From: an uncultured bacterium
GTDB lineage: Bacteria; CAIJMQ01
Reading direction: 5' to 3'
Length of the DNA: 38,493 nt
NCBI GenBank assembly: GCA_964573245.1
Contig: CAZNJA010000009.1
Coordinates: 1-38,493 of the forward strand
The notes under the pieces were generated by a model. That model worked only from the letters and a program-made list of their open reading frames with translations, searched no databases and was not told the DNA's origin. Positions within the stretch are counted from its first letter, which is position 1, and each line of letters opens with the position of its first letter. Both the position numbers and the translations under genes were made by a program. Of the stretch, positions 8,287 to 31,545 are shown piece by piece.

Positions 8287-8387
8287 ATCAATTAAGGCTC
8301 AAATCATTTATAAATCAGAAGCGATTACATGTTTATAAATTTTCGCTTCGTATTCTATCATTAGAAACAAAGAAAAAATCCAAAATT

Positions 8388-8419
8388 CACCCCGCTGGAG
8401 TATAAACTCCAGCGGGGTG
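8388..8419 (-). terminator. Perfect 14-bp hairpin downstream of the prepilin-like gene pair
   Basis: caccccgctggagt-ataa-actccagcggggtg, followed on the minus strand by aattttggatttttt. Confidence 0.75.
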
Positions 8420-10332: not shown

Positions 10333-11772
10333 TTATAGAATTTCCAGTTTTTTTCTTATCAATTCGTTAACTACTTTGGGGTTAGCTTTGCCTTTCATGT
10401 TTTTCATTACTTGTCCTACAAGAAAGCCGAGCGTTTCCGTTTTGCCTTTTTTAAAATCGTCCACAGCGCCTTTATTTTCTCCAAGCACTTTATCCACCGC
10501 TTTTGATATTTCTTCCTCATCCGTTACCTGAGTAAGCCCCTTTTCTTTTATTATTTCTTCGGGCGATTTTCCCTGTTCTATAATTTGGGGGAATATATTC
10601 TTTGCGATATTTTGGTTGATAATGTCTTTGTTCACATAAGTGGTCAATTCAACTAATTTTTCGGGAGTAATCTTGGTCTTACTTATAGTCGTATTATGTT
10701 CGTTTAAATATCTCATAATAGGACCTATAATCCAGTTGACAATTTCTTTGGGTGAAATGCTCTCTTCCGATTTTAAACATTCTTCAAAAAAATCCGCCGT
10801 TTCTTTGTCCGATATGATTATATTTGAATCGTATTCATCTAAACCGTATTTGGTTATGAACTTTTCTTTGCGCATACTTGGAAGCTCAGGCAATTCCTTT
10901 TTTACTTTCTGTATTTCTTCGTCTGAAATAAAAAGCGCGGGCAAATCCGGTTCGGGGAAATATCTGTAATCGTGCGCTTCTTCTTTGCTGCGCATTGAGC
11001 GTGTTATTTGCTCTTTTCCGTCCCATAATCTTGTTTCTTGTGAAACCTTTTCGCCTTTTTTCAGCATTTCCGTTTGTCTTTTTATTTCATAGCGGATAGA
11101 CGAAAGGACAATTTTAAAGGAATTTAAGTTTTTTATTTCAACTCTGGGTGGCAGATGCGTTTGTCCTTTTTCTCTTACGGAAATATTCGCTTCAAACCTC
11201 AAAGAACCTTCCTGCATCTTGCAATCGGAAATTTCTATATATAGCAATATATCCCTCAAAGTATTCATAAATATTTCTACTTCTTCGGGGCTCCTCATAT
11301 CTGGTTTTGTTACGATTTCCACAAGCGGTATGCCTGTGCGGTTAAGGTCTACCAACGAGCCCTTGCCATTTTCAAGATGTATGTTCTTACCCGCATCCTC
11401 TTCAAGATGAATATTGTCCATTCCGACTTTATTAGGAATATCTTTAGTTTTAATTTCAAGAAATCCGTCTTGGGCAAAAGGCAGATATTGTTGCGAAATC
11501 TGATAGTTTTTGGGAAGGTCGGGATAGTAATAATTTTTTCTGTCGAATATCGTCTGCTGGTTGATTGTGCAGTTTAGTACTAAAGCAGTTCTAATCATAT
11601 ATTCAACAGCTTTAGCATTTACTACAGGAAGCACGCCGGGAAGCCCCATACATACAGGACAGACTTGTGAGTTTGGCGATGCTCCGAATTTAGTGGAACA
11701 TCCGCAAAAAAGTTTTGTTTCGGTTGCCAATTCAGCGTGGATTTCTAATCCTATTACTGGTTCGTATGTCAT
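10333..11772 (-). CDS. gatB: Asp/Glu-tRNA amidotransferase subunit B
   Basis: VIGLEIHAEL, FDRKNYYYPDLPK, HLEEDAGK, EIKNLNS, RSKEEAHDYRYFPEPDL, GKANP. Confidence 0.98.
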   Translation of the reverse strand: MTYEPVIGLEIHAELATETKLFCGCSTKFGASPNSQVCPVCMGLPGVLPVVNAKAVEYMIRTALVLNCTINQQTIFDRKNYYYPDLPKNYQISQQYLPFAQDGFLEIKTKDIPNKVGMDNIHLEEDAGKNIHLENGKGSLVDLNRTGIPLVEIVTKPDMRSPEEVEIFMNTLRDILLYIEISDCKMQEGSLRFEANISVREKGQTHLPPRVEIKNLNSFKIVLSSIRYEIKRQTEMLKKGEKVSQETRLWDGKEQITRSMRSKEEAHDYRYFPEPDLPALFISDEEIQKVKKELPELPSMRKEKFITKYGLDEYDSNIIISDKETADFFEECLKSEESISPKEIVNWIIGPIMRYLNEHNTTISKTKITPEKLVELTTYVNKDIINQNIAKNIFPQIIEQGKSPEEIIKEKGLTQVTDEEEISKAVDKVLGENKGAVDDFKKGKTETLGFLVGQVMKNMKGKANPKVVNELIRKKLEIL

Positions 11773-11878: not shown

Positions 11879-13366
11879 TTATATTATGGGTTTCTTCATA
11901 TGGTATTCCGTATTCTGTTCAAATGTGAAAGCGGTCTGTAAAATTTTCCCTTCATCAAAAGGTTTTCCGATAATTTGAAGACCTATCGGCAGTTTATCGG
12001 AGGAAAACCCGCAAGGTATAGAGATAGCAGGAAGTCCGGCCAAGTTTACGGGAATCGTGAATATATCAGAAAGATACATCTTTAATGGGTCGGAAACTTT
12101 CTCCCCTATTTTGAAAGCAGGCGTCGGAGAAACAGGCGTGACAATTACATCGCATTTTTTGAACACCTCATCAAAATCATTTTTTATCAGCGTTCTGACC
12201 TTTAGAGCTTTTAGGTAATATGCTTCATAATAGCCCGAAGACAAGGCATAAGTTCCAAGCATTATTCTTCTTTTTACCTCTTCGCCGAAACCCTCGTCTC
12301 GTGTTTTCTCGTACATATCAACGATTGAACTCACTTTGCTGTCTTCCGTCTTCTGCTTGCTGTTTGCTGTTCTATGTCCATAATGAACTCCGTCGTATCG
12401 CGCAAGGTTAGAGCTGGCTTCTGCAGGCGCAATAATATAATACGTTGCAACTGCATATTCTGTATGAGGTAAGGAAACCTCTACAATTTCGGCGCCCAAT
12501 TTCTTGAAAGTTTCTATAGCGTTTAAAATTGCTTTTTCGACTTCTTTATCCATCCCTTCGACAAAATATTCCTTAGGAATTCCTATTTTTAATTTTTTGG
12601 CATTGTTTATTAAATGCTTTGTATAATCCGGCACACTTTCACCAACAGAAGTAGAATCCATCGGGTCATGTCCTGCTATTACATTTAGAAGAATAGCTGT
12701 ATCTTGGACATCTTTTGTAAATGTGCCAATCTGGTCTAGGGAAGATGCAAATGCCACAAGCCCATATCGCGATACTCTTCCATAAGTGGGTTTTAATCCT
12801 ACGACTCCGCACATGCTTGCCGGCTGACGGATAGAGCCGCCCGTATCCGACCCCAATGACATAATTGCAAAATCGGCCGCCACACAAGCTGCAGAACCGC
12901 CCGAAGAACCGCCGGGTATAACCGAAAAGTCCCACGGATTTCTACATACTCCATAAGCAGAATTTTCGGTTGAAGAACCCATAGCGAATTCGTCCATGTT
13001 GGTTTTACCCAAAATTATGACATTCGCTTTTTTGAATTTTTCTGTAACTGTTGCGTCATAAATAGGGATATAATTTGATAGTATTTTTGAACCGCAAGTG
13101 GTTTTTATATTTCTTGTCGAGATAAGATCTTTTATTGCAATTGGAATGCCTGATAATGCTCCTATTTTTTCACCTTCACTTATTTTTTTGTCCACTTTTT
13201 CGGCTTCCTGCAAAGCCGACTCTTTGGTAAGAGTAATATAAGAATTTATATTTTTATCTAATTTTTCTATGCGCTCATAAATATTTTTTGCAATTTCAAG
13301 CGAAGAAGTTTTCTTCTCCACAAGCAGTTTATTTAATTCGTGAGCGGTTAATTCGTATAATTCCAT
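11879..13366 (-). CDS. gatA: Asp/Glu-tRNA amidotransferase subunit A
   Basis: [46 protein letters not shown]; start set at the ATG (MELYEL) rather than the TTG at 13372. Confidence 0.98.
12339..12373 (-). repeat. Degenerate heptamer tract in frame in gatA
   Basis: ctgtctt ccgtctt ctgcttg ctgtttg ctgttct; encodes [12 protein letters not shown]. Confidence 0.6.
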
Positions 13367-13378
13367 GTTCAATCCCTT

Positions 13379-14124
13379 AAATCAAAAATTAAAAATCAAA
13401 TATCAAAAATACATATCAAAATGCAAAAAGAAATAAATCCGAATTATTTATTAGACCTTGCTTTCCGTTCTTGAATACTTTTTAATAAATAAGGCGCAGC
13501 TTCTTCGTAGGTTTTACCTGATTTTATGCTGTTACAAACAAGGCAGCTTGTTTTCAGGTTGTCTTTTGTATGCTTTCCTTCTTTGCTTTGGGGTATCAAG
13601 TGGTCAAGTGTTGCGTTTTGGAAAGTTACTTTTTCACCGCAATAAAAACAGGTCCATTTATCTCTTTCAAAAATTTCTTTTCTTTTTTCTTCATCAGTAA
13701 AATAATTTTCCTCTTTCGGATCTTGAGTAATTGAAAGTTTTTCTTTTACTAAAGGAATTTCCTCCGGAAGAAAAACAATATATAGTGTTCCGTCGCGGTT
13801 AATATCGCCAACTTTAATGCAGCTTTTTTCTTCAAGTCCCTTAACCAATTTCGTAACATGGGCGTAATTCGTTTTTTCACCACGAGAACCTTTGCCGTAA
13901 TTTTCTGCAATAGTCCTTTTGCCAATTCGGATTTTAGGAGAATTATTTTTTATATGCGAATTGCGCAAAAAGAAAATATAAAGCGATGCCTCGTAGGGAG
14001 TAAGTTCGGGTACCAAAAAATCTACATATTGCTCAATTATAGCTTTTATATCTTTTGACATATTAGTTTCTTAATTTTGATTTTTGATTTGTCATTTTGC
14101 ATTTTAATTTTTGATTTTTACATT
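13379..14124 (-). mobile_element. Family A heptamer-arm element carrying an HNH gene, between gatC and gatA
   Basis: Arm 13379-13428 and arm 14073-14124 match the empty copies at 35281-35424 and 5705-5884; mobility is inferred. Confidence 0.6.
13444..14061 (-). CDS. HNH endonuclease with a probable N-terminal winged-HTH domain
   Basis: IFERDKWTCFYCG, DHLIPQSKEGKHTKDNLKTSCLVCNSIK (CxxC...DH...N...CxxCN); N-terminal half LTPYEASLY..L...IA...V...L.EK..I looks wHTH-like. Confidence 0.88.
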   Translation of the reverse strand: MSKDIKAIIEQYVDFLVPELTPYEASLYIFFLRNSHIKNNSPKIRIGKRTIAENYGKGSRGEKTNYAHVTKLVKGLEEKSCIKVGDINRDGTLYIVFLPEEIPLVKEKLSITQDPKEENYFTDEEKRKEIFERDKWTCFYCGEKVTFQNATLDHLIPQSKEGKHTKDNLKTSCLVCNSIKSGKTYEEAAPYLLKSIQERKARSNK

Positions 14125-18731: not shown

Positions 18732-19916
18732 CTATGCAGACAATTGTTCCTGTGTGGGGGATTTCAGCCAAAATATTGGAATAGCCGCAAGCGCAACTAC
18801 TATGCCGCTAAGAAGAAAAGGGTAATCTATTGAATATTGGCTCACAAAACCTGCTATTAGGGGACCGAAAATCCAGCCCAACGCCTGCCAGGCAAGCACC
18901 ATACCAACATCAAGCCCCCTGCTTTTATCCCTTGAATAATGCTGAATAAGAGTGTTTCTGGCGGGCACCCAAAAACTTGCTCCTATTATATCGTGTAGTA
19001 ACCACACAATAGACGCAGTCAGAAAATATTTGGGAATTATAGCAATAGAAGTAAAAATTCCCTGTATCAAAATAGCAATAATCGTAGTCCATTTCAGATT
19101 CCACTTAACGACCTTTCCCGTAATAATCATCGGAAGCCCCAAACTTAATCTGTGAAACGCTATAATCACCGACACCACAACGGGCGAAATGGAAAACTTA
19201 TGATAAAAAAACAAAGGCGCAATAAAAGAATGGCTCATGCTGATGCCGACCCCCAAAAGAAACCCCGAAATATTCAAGAGAAATAAAGGATAAGATAAAC
19301 GATGTCTGAAAGGAGAAGCCCATGGGAATGCCTTTAAATCCGCAAAATTCACCCTTTTCAAAAACTTTTGATTTTCTACTTGTGAACTTGCCTCCCGAAA
19401 TTTAAACGAAAACAGAGCATATATCAGCAGAACCAGCAGGCCAACATACATAAAAGTGTGTTTATAACCAAGTGCCGCAAGCAAAACTCCGCCCACGATA
19501 GTGCCAACGCCCTGAAAAGTGGCATCGAATCCCGCTACCCAAGCCACAACGATGCGAAACGATTTTTTCCACCTGTCGAAAATCAGAAGCTGCTGAACCG
19601 TCTCCTTTATCGCAAGTGATGCTTCCCTTAAAGACTTTAAGAATATTTGAGGGCCGATAAAAGGAAAAAACGGAGTGAATAGATTGGTAATACCGCAGAA
19701 AAACAGAGACAGCCCGAAAATGTGTTTTCTTCCGAAAGTATCCGAAATATGCCCCGCGTAAATCCTTATAAAGAAAAGAAGCAGCGCAGAAAACGAGAAA
19801 ATAATCCCCATATTCCCGTAAGATATATTCAAATCGTCCAAAAAGAACGGGAGCAGGAAATCATACAACCCAATGCCCAAACCAAAAATGGCACTCGCAA
19901 GAATGAGTAAAAACAT
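18732..19916 (-). CDS. MFS transporter
   Basis: About 12 hydrophobic segments, motif A GHISDTFGRK, 394 aa. Confidence 0.88.
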   Translation of the reverse strand: MFLLILASAIFGLGIGLYDFLLPFFLDDLNISYGNMGIIFSFSALLLFFIRIYAGHISDTFGRKHIFGLSLFFCGITNLFTPFFPFIGPQIFLKSLREASLAIKETVQQLLIFDRWKKSFRIVVAWVAGFDATFQGVGTIVGGVLLAALGYKHTFMYVGLLVLLIYALFSFKFREASSQVENQKFLKRVNFADLKAFPWASPFRHRLSYPLFLLNISGFLLGVGISMSHSFIAPLFFYHKFSISPVVVSVIIAFHRLSLGLPMIITGKVVKWNLKWTTIIAILIQGIFTSIAIIPKYFLTASIVWLLHDIIGASFWVPARNTLIQHYSRDKSRGLDVGMVLAWQALGWIFGPLIAGFVSQYSIDYPFLLSGIVVALAAIPIFWLKSPTQEQLSA

Positions 19917-19923
19917 AGAAGCA

Positions 19924-19952
19924 AGTTTACCTTAAGAAGGAGGGCTTGTAAA
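19924..19952 (-). promoter_or_regulatory. Putative promoter for a leaderless MFS transcript
   Basis: TTTACA, 17 nt, TAAACT, ending 7 nt before the ATG at 19916; no SD sequence. Confidence 0.5.
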
Positions 19953-20160
19953 TCGCGTTAGAAAAATTCCGGGCTACGGGTTCCGCCCTTAGAAATCACA
20001 AAGTGATTCCAAGGGCCAAAGTCTCCCTTTCAGGGACTAAATCCCTGAGATGCTCTGCATCTCTAGGGGCCGGAAATCTTTCCCTGAGGAATGCAGAGCA
20101 TTCCCAGGACTAAAGTACCCGAAATTTCTTCGAAATTTCAGGGTGCAGATTTCTCGGGGC
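19953..20160. repeat. Array of five short bulged hairpins within a degenerate GTTAGAAA...TTTCT(AA)CGGGG outer repeat
   Basis: Hairpins at 19985-20016, 20021-20037, 20043-20068, 20083-20108, 20117-20144. Confidence 0.8.
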
Positions 20161-20316
20161 AACTACGATAACCGAGTTTATCAGCTGTAAATAGTGACGC
20201 GAACTGATAACCGTTTTTTTCCTTCACGATTTGTTCAATATACTTGCGGAGGGAAAGTAATTACGCTAAACGTTAAGATTTGCCCCTTATTTTCTTATTA
20301 CTTTGTTTCTTCATCC

Positions 20317-23300
20317 TTATTTCACACTCTTTTCACTAACCCATATCAAAGGAGCAAGTGTCTTTCTTACTATATTTTTCAATATAGGACTTTCTTCTAT
20401 AAATCTGGCTATAGGAGGAGATGCTCTATAGTAAATGCTTACAAATTTTTCTCCTATTGGGTTGGTTAACAGATATTCATTTCTAAAACTTCTTAGGGTT
20501 CTCACTTCTTTAGACATCTCTGCCCCATATGAGGCAGTTGCTATAAAACACCACTTTTTCCCCTTGTCGTCGTCATCATCACCGCCTGTATCAAAAATCG
20601 TTTCAACTCCACTAACGGCAAAAACACTACCTGCAATAGCTTCAAAAGTTACTCTGCCTAAAGAGTCCGACAGGTATAATCCCAAGAGTACTCCGTCTTT
20701 TGTTACAGCATAATAGTTGTTTGGGGTAAGGCCATTTATAGTATGCGTTGCTGTAATACCCGGCGCGCCTGCTTCTTCTGTCCACTGTTTGTAATAAGGA
20801 GCAGAAGTGTTCCATGCGTCAAAGGAAAGATCAATTCTAACAGGAGAGGATAATACGATATCCATTATGGAAGTGTCTGAGGTTAGAGAATCTTCAAAAA
20901 TAATGCTGATAATGCCGGTATCATTGGCATCCGCCGTTGCCGATAAAACCATAATGTTCTCGTCAGAGATGCTCTTTATTGCAGGAGTTGTGGCATACTC
21001 ATAAGTGAATTCAGTGCGAGAGGGGAGAAGCTGTCCATATTCACTCATATGATAGTCCCAATCATCGTTGTCGGTATCGTCTCTTGTATCAGGGAAGGTA
21101 GTCCAGTAAGGAAGAAGCCCCTTTATTTTCAGCGACAACCAATACCAACTTTGAGGATAGTCCATCACCCAATTTATATCAGTAAGCGTTCTGTTAATCC
21201 AAATGTAAAGAAGAGAAAAAGGTATAGAAAGCGATTTTTCGACATATCCCTCTACTCCTTTTTCAAGAAAACTAGCATACTGCTCAATGCCGATATAGAG
21301 TTCTGCTTCATCGCCGGGGTCAAATGTTTTATACCAAATATAACTGTCAATATCTGACAAATTAGCCAGAGGGTAATCCGGTATTTCTTCAGGAGAAGTT
21401 ATAACAAATCGCGCGCACCAGCCTACTTTCATACTTGTCGGCGGTTCTAAGTACAGGGATTTTGAATCGTAAATACTTCCCAGCGATTGTCCGTGGGTCG
21501 GATTTATTCCTCTAAAATAGTATGTAGTTGTTTGTGTGTCAATATCCCCGACAAAGAAAAGTATTCTTCTTTTTGTGGTGTTTAAATTTTCATCAGTGAC
21601 GGTGAAAATCAGGGAATATGTTCCCGGTTTGGTTACAGTAAAATGACCTTGGGGATTATTGGTGATAGCCCAATTATTATCAGCCGTGATTGTTTCTGAT
21701 GGAGAAGTTGTAATGGCAGTGCAATCCTCACAGTCAGTGCCATCGAGATTAAAGGCGGAAATGCCGAAACTGACCGTATCATCAACGTTCTTTGTTCTCG
21801 GGTCAGCATCGGTAAAAGTCAGCATCTTGCTGAGCATATTGTCATTGAACCGGTTTGATGAGTAAGTGTTGATTGTCCCGGTGTTGTAAATATCGTTTCT
21901 GTTCTTTGAGATAATGTTGCCGGTTAAGGTATTTGAGGAGGAAGAATTCAGATAGATACCGTATTTATTTGAGTATACCGTATTTTCCGTTATTTGGTTA
22001 TCGTTTGATGAAGAGTTCAGGTAGATGCCGAATTCATTGAATTGCACCGTATTTCCCATTATTAGGTTATCGTTTGATGAAGAGTTCAGATAGATGCCGT
22101 ATCTATTTGAGTTGACAGTGATATTCTCAATTGTTGAATTGCTTGTATTACCAAAATAGACGCAATAACGGTTGCGAGGCGAGAGGGTGGCATTTTTTAC
22201 TTGGACGTAGGAGCTGTTTATGCACCAGAACATTCCGATATCTCCTATCTCATCACCGTCATAGACAAGAGGTACCTCAGCAGTTCCGTGTTCGTCATAT
22301 AAGTAATAGACCGGCTTGCCCTCCACCATGTTGGTGTTGTCTATATTGTTGTCGTATGCGCCTGCGACATAAAGATTATACGTGTTTCCCGACATTGTAT
22401 TGCCGGTCAGAGTGTTGCCGGAAGAAGAGAGTAAGTAAATGCCATGAGTGTAGCTTGAACTCGTTATGTTCCCTATCAGGTTGTTATTTGAGGAAAATTT
22501 AAGATAGATACTGTAGTCATTTGAGTTAGCAGCGATATTCTCAATTGTTGAATTGCCGGTGCCGTCAAAATAGACGCCGTAACGGTTGTTAGGCGAGAGG
22601 GTGGCATTTTTTACTTGGACGTAGGAGCTGTTTATGCACCAGAACATTCCGATATCTCCTATCTCATCACCGTCATAGACGAGAGGCACCTCAGCAGTTC
22701 CGTGTTCGCTGTGTAAATAATAGATAGGCTTTCCTTCAACTGTATTGGTAGTATCTATATCGTTGTAATATGTGGCAGGCATGAGCTGAAGATTGTATTC
22801 ATTCCCAGACATTGTGTTGCCGGTCAGAGTGTTGCCGGAAGAAGAGTTCAGATAGATGCCTGTTTTATCATTAAAGTTCGCTATATTTCCTATTAGGTCG
22901 TTTGAGTCGGCAAGAGCATAGCTATAGATACCATAGATATTGAAATTGGTAGTATTATTGAGTAGAGTGTTGTTGCTTACGAATTTCAAGTAAATGCCAT
23001 AATAATTGTTGTTTGCAATAACATTTTCTATAACGCAATCGGTATAAGGTGCGGATGGATTTGGTGACGCTAGATACACCCCCGCTTTCTGGTTACCGAT
23101 TGCACCTTCCGCCGTAAACCCGATTATTTTGACATTACTTTCTGTTATGGTGAATACATTCTCAGACGGGTCCGGTGTTTGAACAATACAGTTATCGGGA
23201 CCGTTCTGTGAGCTTATAGCTAAACCCTTATCAACGGTGACACTCTCCGAGTAGGTACCATCCGCAACTAAAACGGTATCTCCAACGTCCGCTGTGTCAA

Positions 23301-23475
23301 CTGCATTTTGTATTGTGAGTTTGGCAGTGGGCCACGTGAGTCCATCATGACCATCATCTCCGGTAGTGCTGACATAATAATAGGTATCTGCGGCAGAAAC
23401 ATTGTCAGCTCCAAGTAAAAAAACAACGGAGAACAAAAGTACCCATAAAATAATAATAATTTTGTTTTTATTCAT
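20317..23475 (-). CDS. Secreted parallel beta-helix (NosD/CASH-like) repeat protein with C-terminal CFI-box-CTERM domain
   Basis: Signal peptide, TIQNAVD.A..GDTV.V..GTY, many GIYL..S.NN.L..N repeats, GGDDDDDKGKKWCFIATASYG...LR.FR...L...G..FV..YYR.SPP.A; ATG 23475 preferred to TTG 23484. Confidence 0.85.
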   Translation of the reverse strand: MNKNKIIIILWVLLFSVVFLLGADNVSAADTYYYVSTTGDDGHDGLTWPTAKLTIQNAVDTADVGDTVLVADGTYSESVTVDKGLAISSQNGPDNCIVQTPDPSENVFTITESNVKIIGFTAEGAIGNQKAGVYLASPNPSAPYTDCVIENVIANNNYYGIYLKFVSNNTLLNNTTNFNIYGIYSYALADSNDLIGNIANFNDKTGIYLNSSSGNTLTGNTMSGNEYNLQLMPATYYNDIDTTNTVEGKPIYYLHSEHGTAEVPLVYDGDEIGDIGMFWCINSSYVQVKNATLSPNNRYGVYFDGTGNSTIENIAANSNDYSIYLKFSSNNNLIGNITSSSYTHGIYLLSSSGNTLTGNTMSGNTYNLYVAGAYDNNIDNTNMVEGKPVYYLYDEHGTAEVPLVYDGDEIGDIGMFWCINSSYVQVKNATLSPRNRYCVYFGNTSNSTIENITVNSNRYGIYLNSSSNDNLIMGNTVQFNEFGIYLNSSSNDNQITENTVYSNKYGIYLNSSSSNTLTGNIISKNRNDIYNTGTINTYSSNRFNDNMLSKMLTFTDADPRTKNVDDTVSFGISAFNLDGTDCEDCTAITTSPSETITADNNWAITNNPQGHFTVTKPGTYSLIFTVTDENLNTTKRRILFFVGDIDTQTTTYYFRGINPTHGQSLGSIYDSKSLYLEPPTSMKVGWCARFVITSPEEIPDYPLANLSDIDSYIWYKTFDPGDEAELYIGIEQYASFLEKGVEGYVEKSLSIPFSLLYIWINRTLTDINWVMDYPQSWYWLSLKIKGLLPYWTTFPDTRDDTDNDDWDYHMSEYGQLLPSRTEFTYEYATTPAIKSISDENIMVLSATADANDTGIISIIFEDSLTSDTSIMDIVLSSPVRIDLSFDAWNTSAPYYKQWTEEAGAPGITATHTINGLTPNNYYAVTKDGVLLGLYLSDSLGRVTFEAIAGSVFAVSGVETIFDTGGDDDDDKGKKWCFIATASYGAEMSKEVRTLRSFRNEYLLTNPIGEKFVSIYYRASPPIARFIEESPILKNIVRKTLAPLIWVSEKSVK
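22177..22708 (-). repeat. Internal duplication in the beta-helix gene (offset 414 nt = 138 aa)
   Basis: 22177-22294 and 22591-22708 differ at 2 of 118 positions, both synonymous. Confidence 0.9.
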
Positions 23476-23502
23476 ATCTATCAATATATTTTACCACGAA
23501 AA

Positions 23503-31316: not shown

Positions 31317-31484
31317 GCAATTCTAATATAGAAAACAAGGTATCAAGATTTCAGGTTACCTTTTAACAATACCTTAATGCTATTTTTACTGCGGTAATTA
31401 TATCATACGTAGTTTTTATACTGGAATGATTTCGAAAACGATAGACAAAGTAAACCCTAAACAAAAAGGATAAGAAATCTATTA

Positions 31485-31545
31485 TTTTGTCCGCCTTAAA
31501 AGGCGGACAAAAAAGAACCCCCGCCACTGAATCAATGGCGGGGGT
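31485..31545 (-). terminator. Tandem hairpins downstream of the porin gene
   Basis: acccccgccactga-a-tcaatggcgggggt (31517-31545, T tract follows on minus strand) and ttttgtccgcct-taaa-aggcggacaaaa (31485-31512). Confidence 0.8.

Follow-up and report, generated by a model that had tools for sequence, protein, structure and literature searches.

The window, by which we mean the whole stretch of 38,493 nucleotides (nt) that was analysed, contains a block of hairpins in a 400-nt spacer between two minus-strand genes. The gene upstream of the block encodes a NosD/beta-helix protein, and its stop codon lies 157 nt from the composite element that makes up the block; the gene downstream encodes an MFS transporter, and the block, referred to here as the array, is immediately upstream of the promoter-like site of this gene. 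Letters resembling the promoter-like site are also found, by eye, upstream of the orthologous MFS genes at two loci of relatives (L022 and L023). The features of the spacer and its borders are as follows.

18732 to 19916, minus strand: MFS transporter gene, 394 aa (Pfam MFS_1, E 3e-28), downstream of the array
19924 to 19952, minus strand: promoter-like site TTTACA-17-TAAACT, for the MFS transporter gene
19986 to 20159, no strand assigned: whole composite element, 174 nt
20317 to 23484, minus strand: NosD/beta-helix protein gene, 1055 aa (Pfam NosD and Beta_helix), upstream of the array

The genome that holds the window (G000, in which the window is contig C9) is an assembly of 1.46 Mb in 110 contigs, 93% complete, with 38% G+C and of Candidatus Ratteibacteria type. 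Bacterial SSU rRNA is absent from this assembly.

An earlier note on this DNA had described four long bulged hairpins, a shorter hairpin and a pair of bracketing sequences. The four long hairpins are present, at 19985-20016 (+), 20041-20070 (-), 20081-20110 (+) and 20115-20146 (-), and each matches the unit model introduced below; they are the only matches to that model in the 38.5-kb window (E<1e-4, filters off). Their orientation is well defined (31 to 41 bits on one strand versus at most 13 on the other) and alternates, + - + -, as had been noted. Their shape is also as described, with a basal stem of 4 to 6 bp, a 1-nt bulge, an upper stem of 7 to 8 bp and a 3-nt loop. The short hairpin TCCCT-TTC-AGGGA lies at 20024-20036, and the compensatory difference between the units at 20043 and 20083 (GAGATGC/GCATCTC versus GGAATGC/GCATTCC) can be read directly in the sequence. 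The brackets proved to be something else. The right one, atttctcgggg (~20149-20159), is the 3' half of a unit that has been split, and its partner half lies at 20070-20081 rather than at 19954; the left one, cgcgttagaaa (19954), matches none of the unit models.

In folding, the region beats 200 of 200 dinucleotide shuffles on either strand, with z scores of -5.09 (+) and -5.95 (-). No Rfam family reaches its gathering score anywhere in the window. When the threshold was relaxed to E<=10 for positions 19900-20330, the best match had 16.3 bits versus a gathering score of 90, which is at chance level, and a tRNA scan of the window found none. Two unrelated perfect hairpins also lie in the window, at 8387-8418 and 31484-31511, with 14 and 12 bp and 4-nt loops; the one at 31484-31511 has A/T runs on both sides and is terminator-like.

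A plain hairpin scan of G000 gave 180 hairpins of at least 10 bp, and one pattern was common to 86 of them. We aligned 48 units in the orientation that places the bulge 5' (alignment A1), and a covariance model (R1) was built from these 48 units. The consensus of the alignment is C-CCNN-[A/T bulge]-GNAAT...ATTNC-NNGG-AC. In the alignment 98.5% of the cells are paired, a percentage that is partly circular because the units came from a hairpin scan, while the alternative base pairs are still informative: 8 of the 11 pairs have changes on both sides, and none of 500 shuffles, nor any slid register, came near the observed covariation. With model R1 we detected 85 units in G000 at E<=1e-3 (150 of 1817 candidates scored), so that the search for further copies that the earlier note had proposed finds many of them.

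The bulge base is A in 51 units and T in 22, and never G or C. A 3-nt loop was found in 88 of 117 loosely called units. The claim that the loop is always made of purines on the strand with the bulge 5' holds for all four units of the window and fails as a rule for the genome, where it becomes a strong bias: loops on this strand are 84% purine, and among 66 three-base loops 48 are all-purine versus 4 that are all-pyrimidine. Since the bias is genome-wide, purine loops are a trait of the family in the sense of a bias.

The units of G000 form 38 multi-unit arrays, which lie between genes (32 arrays), at contig ends (5) or in a real long ORF (1). The array in C3:4159-4440 was counted as intergenic because its ORF was judged spurious; this ORF, of 93 aa, is made purely by a nested repeat array and is likely a false gene call. 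The doublet inside the long ORF (C1:12834-12894, in the ORF 12087-13553 on the minus strand) sits beside a TTTTCGG heptamer run, and at the matching place a congener carries a doublet of other unit types.

Several other repeats came to light in the same genome. Two units, C34:1229-1251 and C21:18052-18080, are chimeric; one of the pair is a perfect unbulged palindrome, apparently the result of recombination between the arms of doublet partners, in which the bulge bases now pair, and in the other the 5' half comes from one unit type and the 3' half from a different one. Bulged hairpins with another core, ..TC-T-CGCCA...TGGCG-GA.., make up a second family of about 10 copies, some of them paired (examples are C23:80-147, C55:7026-7076, C19:17544-17569, C30:7018-7043, C24:7999-8032, C44:5456-5490 and C15:21698-21721). 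A third family, CCCACACCAAAA...TTTTGGTGTGGG, has A- and T-runs on either side of the loop and may represent two-way terminators (C21:21267-21303, C36:9413-9448, C60:6936-6966 and C86:4406-4433). Doublets are often bordered by AT-rich runs that repeat every 7 nt (TTTTGAT or AAAATCA, for example), as at C1:12809-12833, C5:32247-32275 and C11:~10520-10620. A lag-7 identity of at least 0.6 was measured in 8 of 73 array flanks versus 72 of 2447 intergenic windows of G000, and such runs are also present without doublets, at orthologous empty sites.

The arrangement of units within arrays is strict. Among the arrays of two units, 29 of 30 have the bulge-5' unit followed by the bulge-3' unit, and none has the reverse order. 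The linkers in these arrays are 6 to 8 nt long, the doublet spacer has 7 to 8 nt and the form ACT..GT, and a conserved C precedes, and a conserved G follows, each doublet, so that the doublet as a whole is about 64 nt and reads C, unit, ACT..GT spacer, inverted unit, G. Like partners were found in none of 35 doublets (criterion, at least 11 of 12 identical arm positions), and 33 of the 35 fold as two separate hairpins. Based on these regularities, what moves appears to be the doublet, two unlike units placed head to head over about 64 nt, and singlets look like remnants of doublets.

Doublets are also found inside units. In 7 of 35 cases the two halves of another unit lie on either side of the doublet, compared with 3 of 675 in a control with mismatched flanks. 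Removal of C-doublet-G rebuilds the split host unit, with the break in or beside its loop, and intact "empty" copies of host units exist elsewhere, for example in the doublet at C1:12834. Nesting was observed in a congener (G001:C11:330543) and, in another genus, ahead of the orthologous MFS gene of G004, as well as in 2 of 101 doublets from the loci of other genomes, where the control gave 1 of 1000. Some composites recur: one on C3 resembles one on C30, that of the window resembles those on C82, C29 and in G001, and one on C34 resembles one in G004. Since composites are shared between genera (C34 with G004) and the window composite that contains insert Z (see below) is shared with G001, several of the apparent events are old and copied, and the independent types of nesting junction number about 7.

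The array of the window can be parsed on these principles into an outer doublet (64 nt), an insert Y (46 nt) and an insert Z (64 nt), which sum to the 174 nt of the composite element. Its parts, from left to right, are listed here.

19987 to 20014, plus strand: U1, left unit of the outer doublet, CCTT-A-GAAATCAC-AAA-GTGATTCC-AAGG, with one A.C mismatch
20015 to 20022, no strand assigned: spacer of the outer doublet, 8 nt, GCCAAAGT; in position and near-same letters it corresponds to the ACCAAAGT spacers of the doublets at C1:12834 and C48:1668
20024 to 20069, no strand assigned: insert Y, consisting of T, the mini-hairpin CCCT-TTC-AGGG (20025-20035), the spacer ACTAAAT (20036-20042), unit U2 (20043-20068, minus strand) and G
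20070 to 20081, minus strand: one half of the split unit U3 (together with the C at 20023), namely basal stem, one arm and two loop bases
20082 to 20145, no strand assigned: insert Z, consisting of C, a unit at 20083-20108 (plus strand), the spacer ACTAAAGT (20109-20116), a unit at 20117-20144 (minus strand) and G
20146 to 20159, minus strand: other half of U3, namely loop base, arm, bulge, basal stem and flanking G (the right bracket of the earlier note)

When Y and Z are removed by script, a canonical doublet remains. Its left unit, U1, has a model match at 19985-20016 of 31.2 bits (E 2e-5) and is of the same unit type as one in the doublet at C48:1668. Its right unit, U3, is rebuilt from 20070-20081 (with the C at 20023) and 20146-20158 as CCCG-A-GAAATCT-GAA-AGATTTC-CGGG, with no mismatches, and is identical to the intact unit at C1:12834. 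Based on the split-unit test and on model matches of 41.4 and 38.0 bits for its two units, insert Z is a complete doublet in the loop of U3, and this layer of the parse is firm. Insert Y has a U2 that matches the model at 37.7 bits. In our preferred reading, Y would be a doublet whose left unit has suffered an internal deletion and which entered after the first base of the basal stem of U3. A second parse also fits, in which the mini-hairpin lies inside a spacer, as it does at C5:32195, where a twin of the mini-hairpin and spacer of Y is found. The U2/U3 junction (20050-20077) recurs on C16, C52, C88 and C34 and twice on C21.

The 90-nt piece at 20070-20159 is 98.9% identical to C82:3542-3631, where its flanks are unique, and it recurs at C29 and at G001:C11:330543. 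In public contigs this piece has about 3 times the depth of its flanks. The identity to C82, the unique flanks there and the threefold depth together indicate that the nested composite has itself been copied. The contigs of four public DNA runs stop at the array, with the exception of one 187-nt piece that is identical to 19973-20159, and they gave no direct sight of an excision or insertion event.

Loci of relatives were found through the MFS protein. In G003, whose MFS protein is 85% identical, the upstream spacer of 140 nt is free of units and a doublet lies downstream of the MFS gene. In G001 no unit was found in the 278-nt spacer upstream of the MFS gene, and the whole locus (L024) is without a match; the MFS locus of G002 has no unit match at E<=0.1. 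G004 has a different array, also nested, upstream of its orthologous MFS gene. Twelve arrays in the relatives' loci could be mapped onto G000, where 3 of the sites are filled and 9 are empty. One pair of an empty and a filled site (G000 C11 versus L033) is clean: G000 reads ...ATGAAT|AGAATAAT... and the relative reads ...ATGAAT-C[doublet]G-AAGGTAAT..., so that C-doublet-G has been inserted with no target duplication. At shared sites the units may differ by many paired changes, as at C8:9985. At another orthologous doublet, C1:37609 compared with G001, pairing is kept via one compensatory change, which hints at selection for the fold and counts against the reading as a gene-less mobile element.

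Units were detected with model R1 in 5 of the 9 species genomes of the phylum, all in family f1, with 85, 94, 87, 52 and 16 matches; the three congeners of G000 have 52 to 94 units, G001 having the 94. The other 4 genomes of the phylum gave no units, and the same holds for 32 genomes drawn as relatives from other phyla. A search of all species genomes with the doublet-junction pattern returned at least 115 stretches, and among the matches listed are records labelled Candidatus Ratteibacteria, many labelled Candidatus Omnitrophota, and others labelled Planctomycetia, Sedimentisphaerales, Phycisphaerales and a few further groups. Five genomes labelled to other phyla (Omnitrophota, Sedimentisphaerales, Spirochaetes and Nitrospirota) gave 57, 53, 82, 35 and 13 model matches. 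The labels of metagenome bins can be wrong, but at least about 20 species-level records labelled Omnitrophota or Omnitrophica matched, and these cannot all belong to a phylum of 9 species.

We searched G000, the phylum and the five other genomes for RAYT and Y1 transposases with PF01797 and NF047646. The only Y1-type match in G000 is a 436-aa protein that scores 30.1 bits with Pfam Y1_Tnp and 33 bits with REP_Tyr_transpos (cut-off 80) and that reads ..DKVYLL.. where the congeners' RAYTs have their HUH histidines (..NHYHLV..). This protein, encoded at C12:23859-25169 (L001:1429-2739), begins with a degenerate RAYT-like domain, continues with a hydrophobic segment and ends in a domain with 42% identity over 101 aa to a neighbouring exported protein of 202 aa, whose gene is just upstream (L001:299-907). 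It has a 446-aa homologue in G003, and a PDB sequence search with it gave no relevant match. G001 (10 contigs, 92% complete, 94 units) and G004 have no match to NF047646 or PF01797 at E<=0.01. RAYT-like genes are present in G002, in G003, in all five of the other-phylum genomes tested and, in three copies, in G007, which has no units. No unit lies within 1.5 kb of 21 of the 22 RAYT-like loci, and the remaining one has a doublet on one side only (these assemblies are incomplete). Two of these loci, one in G002 and one in G007, have RAYT-like genes flanked on both sides by palindromes of their own, of different sequence (G002 L150:1302-1334 and 2021-2045; G007 L141:566-590 and 1271-1293). A RAYT gene flanked by its REPs is the classical RAYT/REP layout, and these two loci thus provide a contrast from within the data.

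Neither the Y1/RAYT profiles nor the profile for integron integrases thus turned up a mobilising enzyme for the hairpin doublets, which counts against a mobile reading. In the classical REPIN-RAYT arrangement a RAYT tyrosine transposase encoded by one gene copy would move the doublets; the incomplete assemblies would lack this gene, or it would have escaped recognition in them. The inverted-hairpin doublet, the bulge and insertion without target duplication do fit the REPINs and IS200/IS605 ends treated in the portions of PMC3116915 and PMC3333891 on which we draw, RAYT-like genes do occur in several of the genomes with units, and G000 is 93% complete and in 110 contigs. We nevertheless regard this explanation as unlikely, given that the matches are lacking in G001 and G004, that the homologue in G000 is devoid of HUH histidines, that nearly all RAYT-like loci are without units although RAYT genes are described as flanked by REPs, that G007 has three RAYT-like genes yet no units, and that doublet partners are never alike, so that no long REPIN hairpin can form. 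The origin of the doublet as a MITE of a DDE transposon was rejected: removal of C-doublet-G rebuilds host units exactly, leaving at most an ambiguous single G, and the empty site is without a duplication. Folded attC sites are bulged hairpins with strand asymmetry, and the units of the array resemble them in general form. The earlier note had named attC-style sites for comparison. Recombination sites of an integron-type system are, in our judgement, extremely improbable, as the best TIGR02249 match in the genome has 80.9 bits versus a cut-off of 265, with similar sub-threshold matches in all 14 control genomes, and the units alternate, with spacers of 7 to 8 nt and no cassettes between them. 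The note's other alternative was a structured non-coding RNA, here taken as a gene for a multi-branched RNA lying between the two genes. Folding is strong on both strands, and the split unit with its insert folds as a three-way junction; even so, we think such a gene very improbable, because in addition to the lack of an Rfam match the region consists wholly of modules that recur about 85 times in either orientation and has no conserved counterpart at the orthologous locus of three congeners.

A function in the host would be a different kind of explanation: protection or processing of RNA 3' ends, insulation from the MFS promoter, or DNA sites for a nucleoid or topology protein, with the stack reflecting selection at this spot. 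Such roles have been proposed for REPs (PMC3733652, in the part consulted), doublets lie mostly between co-oriented genes and nearer to the upstream stop (median 34 nt) than to the next start (median 91.5 nt), the compensatory change at one orthologous doublet would be expected under selection, and in G004, too, an array precedes the orthologous MFS gene. The neighbouring genes of doublets are in tandem in 30 cases, convergent in 2 and divergent in 0, but 82% of all neighbouring gene pairs are co-oriented, so that the context of the doublets is near expectation and a context bias was rejected. The doublets of G000 have no orientation bias of unit types relative to transcription. Mismatches of the G.T type (9) and of the A.C type (5) are similar in number, and therefore neither strand is favoured as RNA. 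A reading as intrinsic terminators was rejected, with no terminator-like site and no T-tail bias on the sense strand, as was one in which doublets land in ribosome-binding sites, since only 3 of 30 doublets end 14 nt or less from the next start (with crude gene calls) and this reading is inapplicable to the window. Nine of the 12 orthologous sites are empty in G000, and at least one copy lies within a long ORF (C1:12834). We found no sign of a dedicated role for the copies, and on balance a host function seems improbable to us, about as much so as mobilization by a RAYT that the assemblies have missed.

The explanation that we consider probable is that the block is a stack of REP/BIME-like mobile hairpin repeats, short bulged palindromes that fold in single-stranded nucleic acid. 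This was also the core of the earlier note, and copy number, head-to-head doublets, presence and absence at orthologous sites and nesting all support it. The conditions that the note had set for its own refutation (a known Rfam family, no further copies, folding no better than shuffles) all turned out in its favour. The family, its shape, copy number and spread, the doublet rule, nesting, turnover between species and the lack of linkage to Y1/RAYT genes are established by the data described above. In the mechanism that we propose, the doublet would behave as a mobile element without genes, present or absent at orthologous sites, that inserts without visible target duplication and would land in the loop, more rarely the stem, of an earlier unit. 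The window array would then consist of three layers: U1 and U3 form the outer doublet, the loop of U3 holds a second doublet that is complete, and its basal stem holds a third that is partly deleted. Part of this composite would later have been copied to other loci. Movement would presumably proceed via single-stranded hairpins, with a trans-acting enzyme doing the cutting and joining by an IS200/IS605- or RAYT-like mechanism, and the copies at the window locus are probably without dedicated function. Judging by the junctions, the target may be a T-rich pentamer on one strand, for instance ATCTT(T/C), based on about 7 independent events, which are too few for more than a suggestion.

The likeness to REP/BIME repeats, as these are characterized in the portions of PMC2817692, PMC3333891 and PMC3733652 used here, lies in the palindromes of 26 to 28 nt, in the number of copies detected (about 85 in 1.46 Mb, mostly intergenic), in the alternating clusters with short linkers and in the stem variants kept paired by compensatory changes. 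Judged by the same portions, the present family differs in having no GTAG tag, its conserved unpaired letters being a 5' C and a 3' AC(T); in a fixed 1-nt A/T bulge and an AT-rich upper stem (GNAAT/ATTNC); and in the absence of a linked RAYT gene and the sharing of one sequence family among several labelled phyla. The strings TAG, GAG and CTG do occur in units, only inside the stem around the bulge, which is not the tag that defines the GTAG superfamily. As in the REPINs of Bertels and Rainey (2011; PMC3116915, as far as the part consulted describes them), the replicating entity looks like a doublet of inverted hairpins, with singlets as remnants. Compared with that description, the doublets here never have like partners (0 of 35) and form two hairpins, they are not adjacent to a RAYT gene, and they often nest (7 of 35), with hairpin loops as the target. 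Nesting in itself has precedent, since the portions of PMC3733652 and PMC3116915 that we used record insertion of REPs, and of REP dimers, within other palindromes and of REPINs into REPINs.

Another comparable group is that of the CGTC-tagged REPs, most of which form head-to-head dimers and which "apparently lack a dedicated transposase" (Di Nocera et al. 2013, PMC3733652, as excerpted). There, the superfamily is defined by an unpaired CGTC, a stem of 8 to 9 bp that starts with A/T pairs, a loop of 4 to 5 nt and a CCA tail. On its other strand the present family has the tag AGTC/GGTC, close to CGTC and to the listed variant TGTC, and here too head-to-head dimers predominate and no Y1 gene is linked; it differs from the definition in its bulged stems of 11 to 12 bp that start with CC, its mostly 3-nt loops, the absence of a CCA tail and the pairing of the last C of the tag. 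This comparison is with the textual definition, and a nearer match could be among the family consensus sequences that PMC3733652 lists in its figures 1 and 2 and in Additional file 1. The subterminal hairpins of IS200/IS605 elements are likewise imperfect and recognised in single-stranded DNA, and these elements likewise insert without target duplication (PMC3333891 and PMC3116915, in the portions used), but those hairpins flank a transposase gene, whereas the present doublets have no cargo between their hairpins and no Y1 gene follows the distribution of the family. Since the units agree with the general definition of REP/BIME repeats, imperfect palindromes of 20 to 40 bp that are high in copy number and mainly extragenic, and depart from the GTAG and CGTC tag and stem rules as well as from the like partners and RAYT genes of REPINs, we assign them to a new family within a known class of repeats. 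The small dispersed repeats (SDR) of Nostoc and its relatives, associated with the name of Elhai and colleagues (2008), are reportedly very small hairpin-forming repeats, nested in each other and in heptamer runs, whose mechanism of movement is unknown. The small nested hairpins and the association with heptamers are alike, and the sequences and hosts differ.

The traits that make this family notable are its obligate unlike partners, its frequent nesting within itself and its sharing across phyla. Our literature search found no published description of REPs for these candidate phyla, and the RepRanger paper has no mention of "Omnitroph" or "Planctomyc". The present family is a well-defined addition to the repeats of these candidate phyla. 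The nested arrays are a readable record of successive insertions and give the exact ends of the moving piece, which are needed in order to seek its enzyme. There are also practical consequences. The repeats break metagenome assemblies, as seen in the 5 of 38 arrays at contig ends and in the public contigs that stop at the array, and they give rise to spurious ORFs (C3:4159-4440) and are open to being misread as RNA genes or as regulatory sites.

One further possibility, which we put forward tentatively and think less likely to be right than wrong, is that the doublet is an element independent of RAYTs, present nearly letter for letter in uncultivated small-genome bacteria of several phyla (Ratteibacteria, Omnitrophota, Planctomycetota and others), in which unlike hairpins are always paired and which lands preferentially in the exposed loops of its kin. 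If this were true, it would imply machinery for cutting and joining single-stranded DNA that is as yet undescribed, encoded by the host or supplied horizontally, for example by a phage or plasmid. It would also imply horizontal spread of a REP-type repeat, whereas vertical inheritance is the usual view for repeats of this type. That several phyla share near-identical units with no transposase linked to them could matter for our understanding of how such repeats spread.
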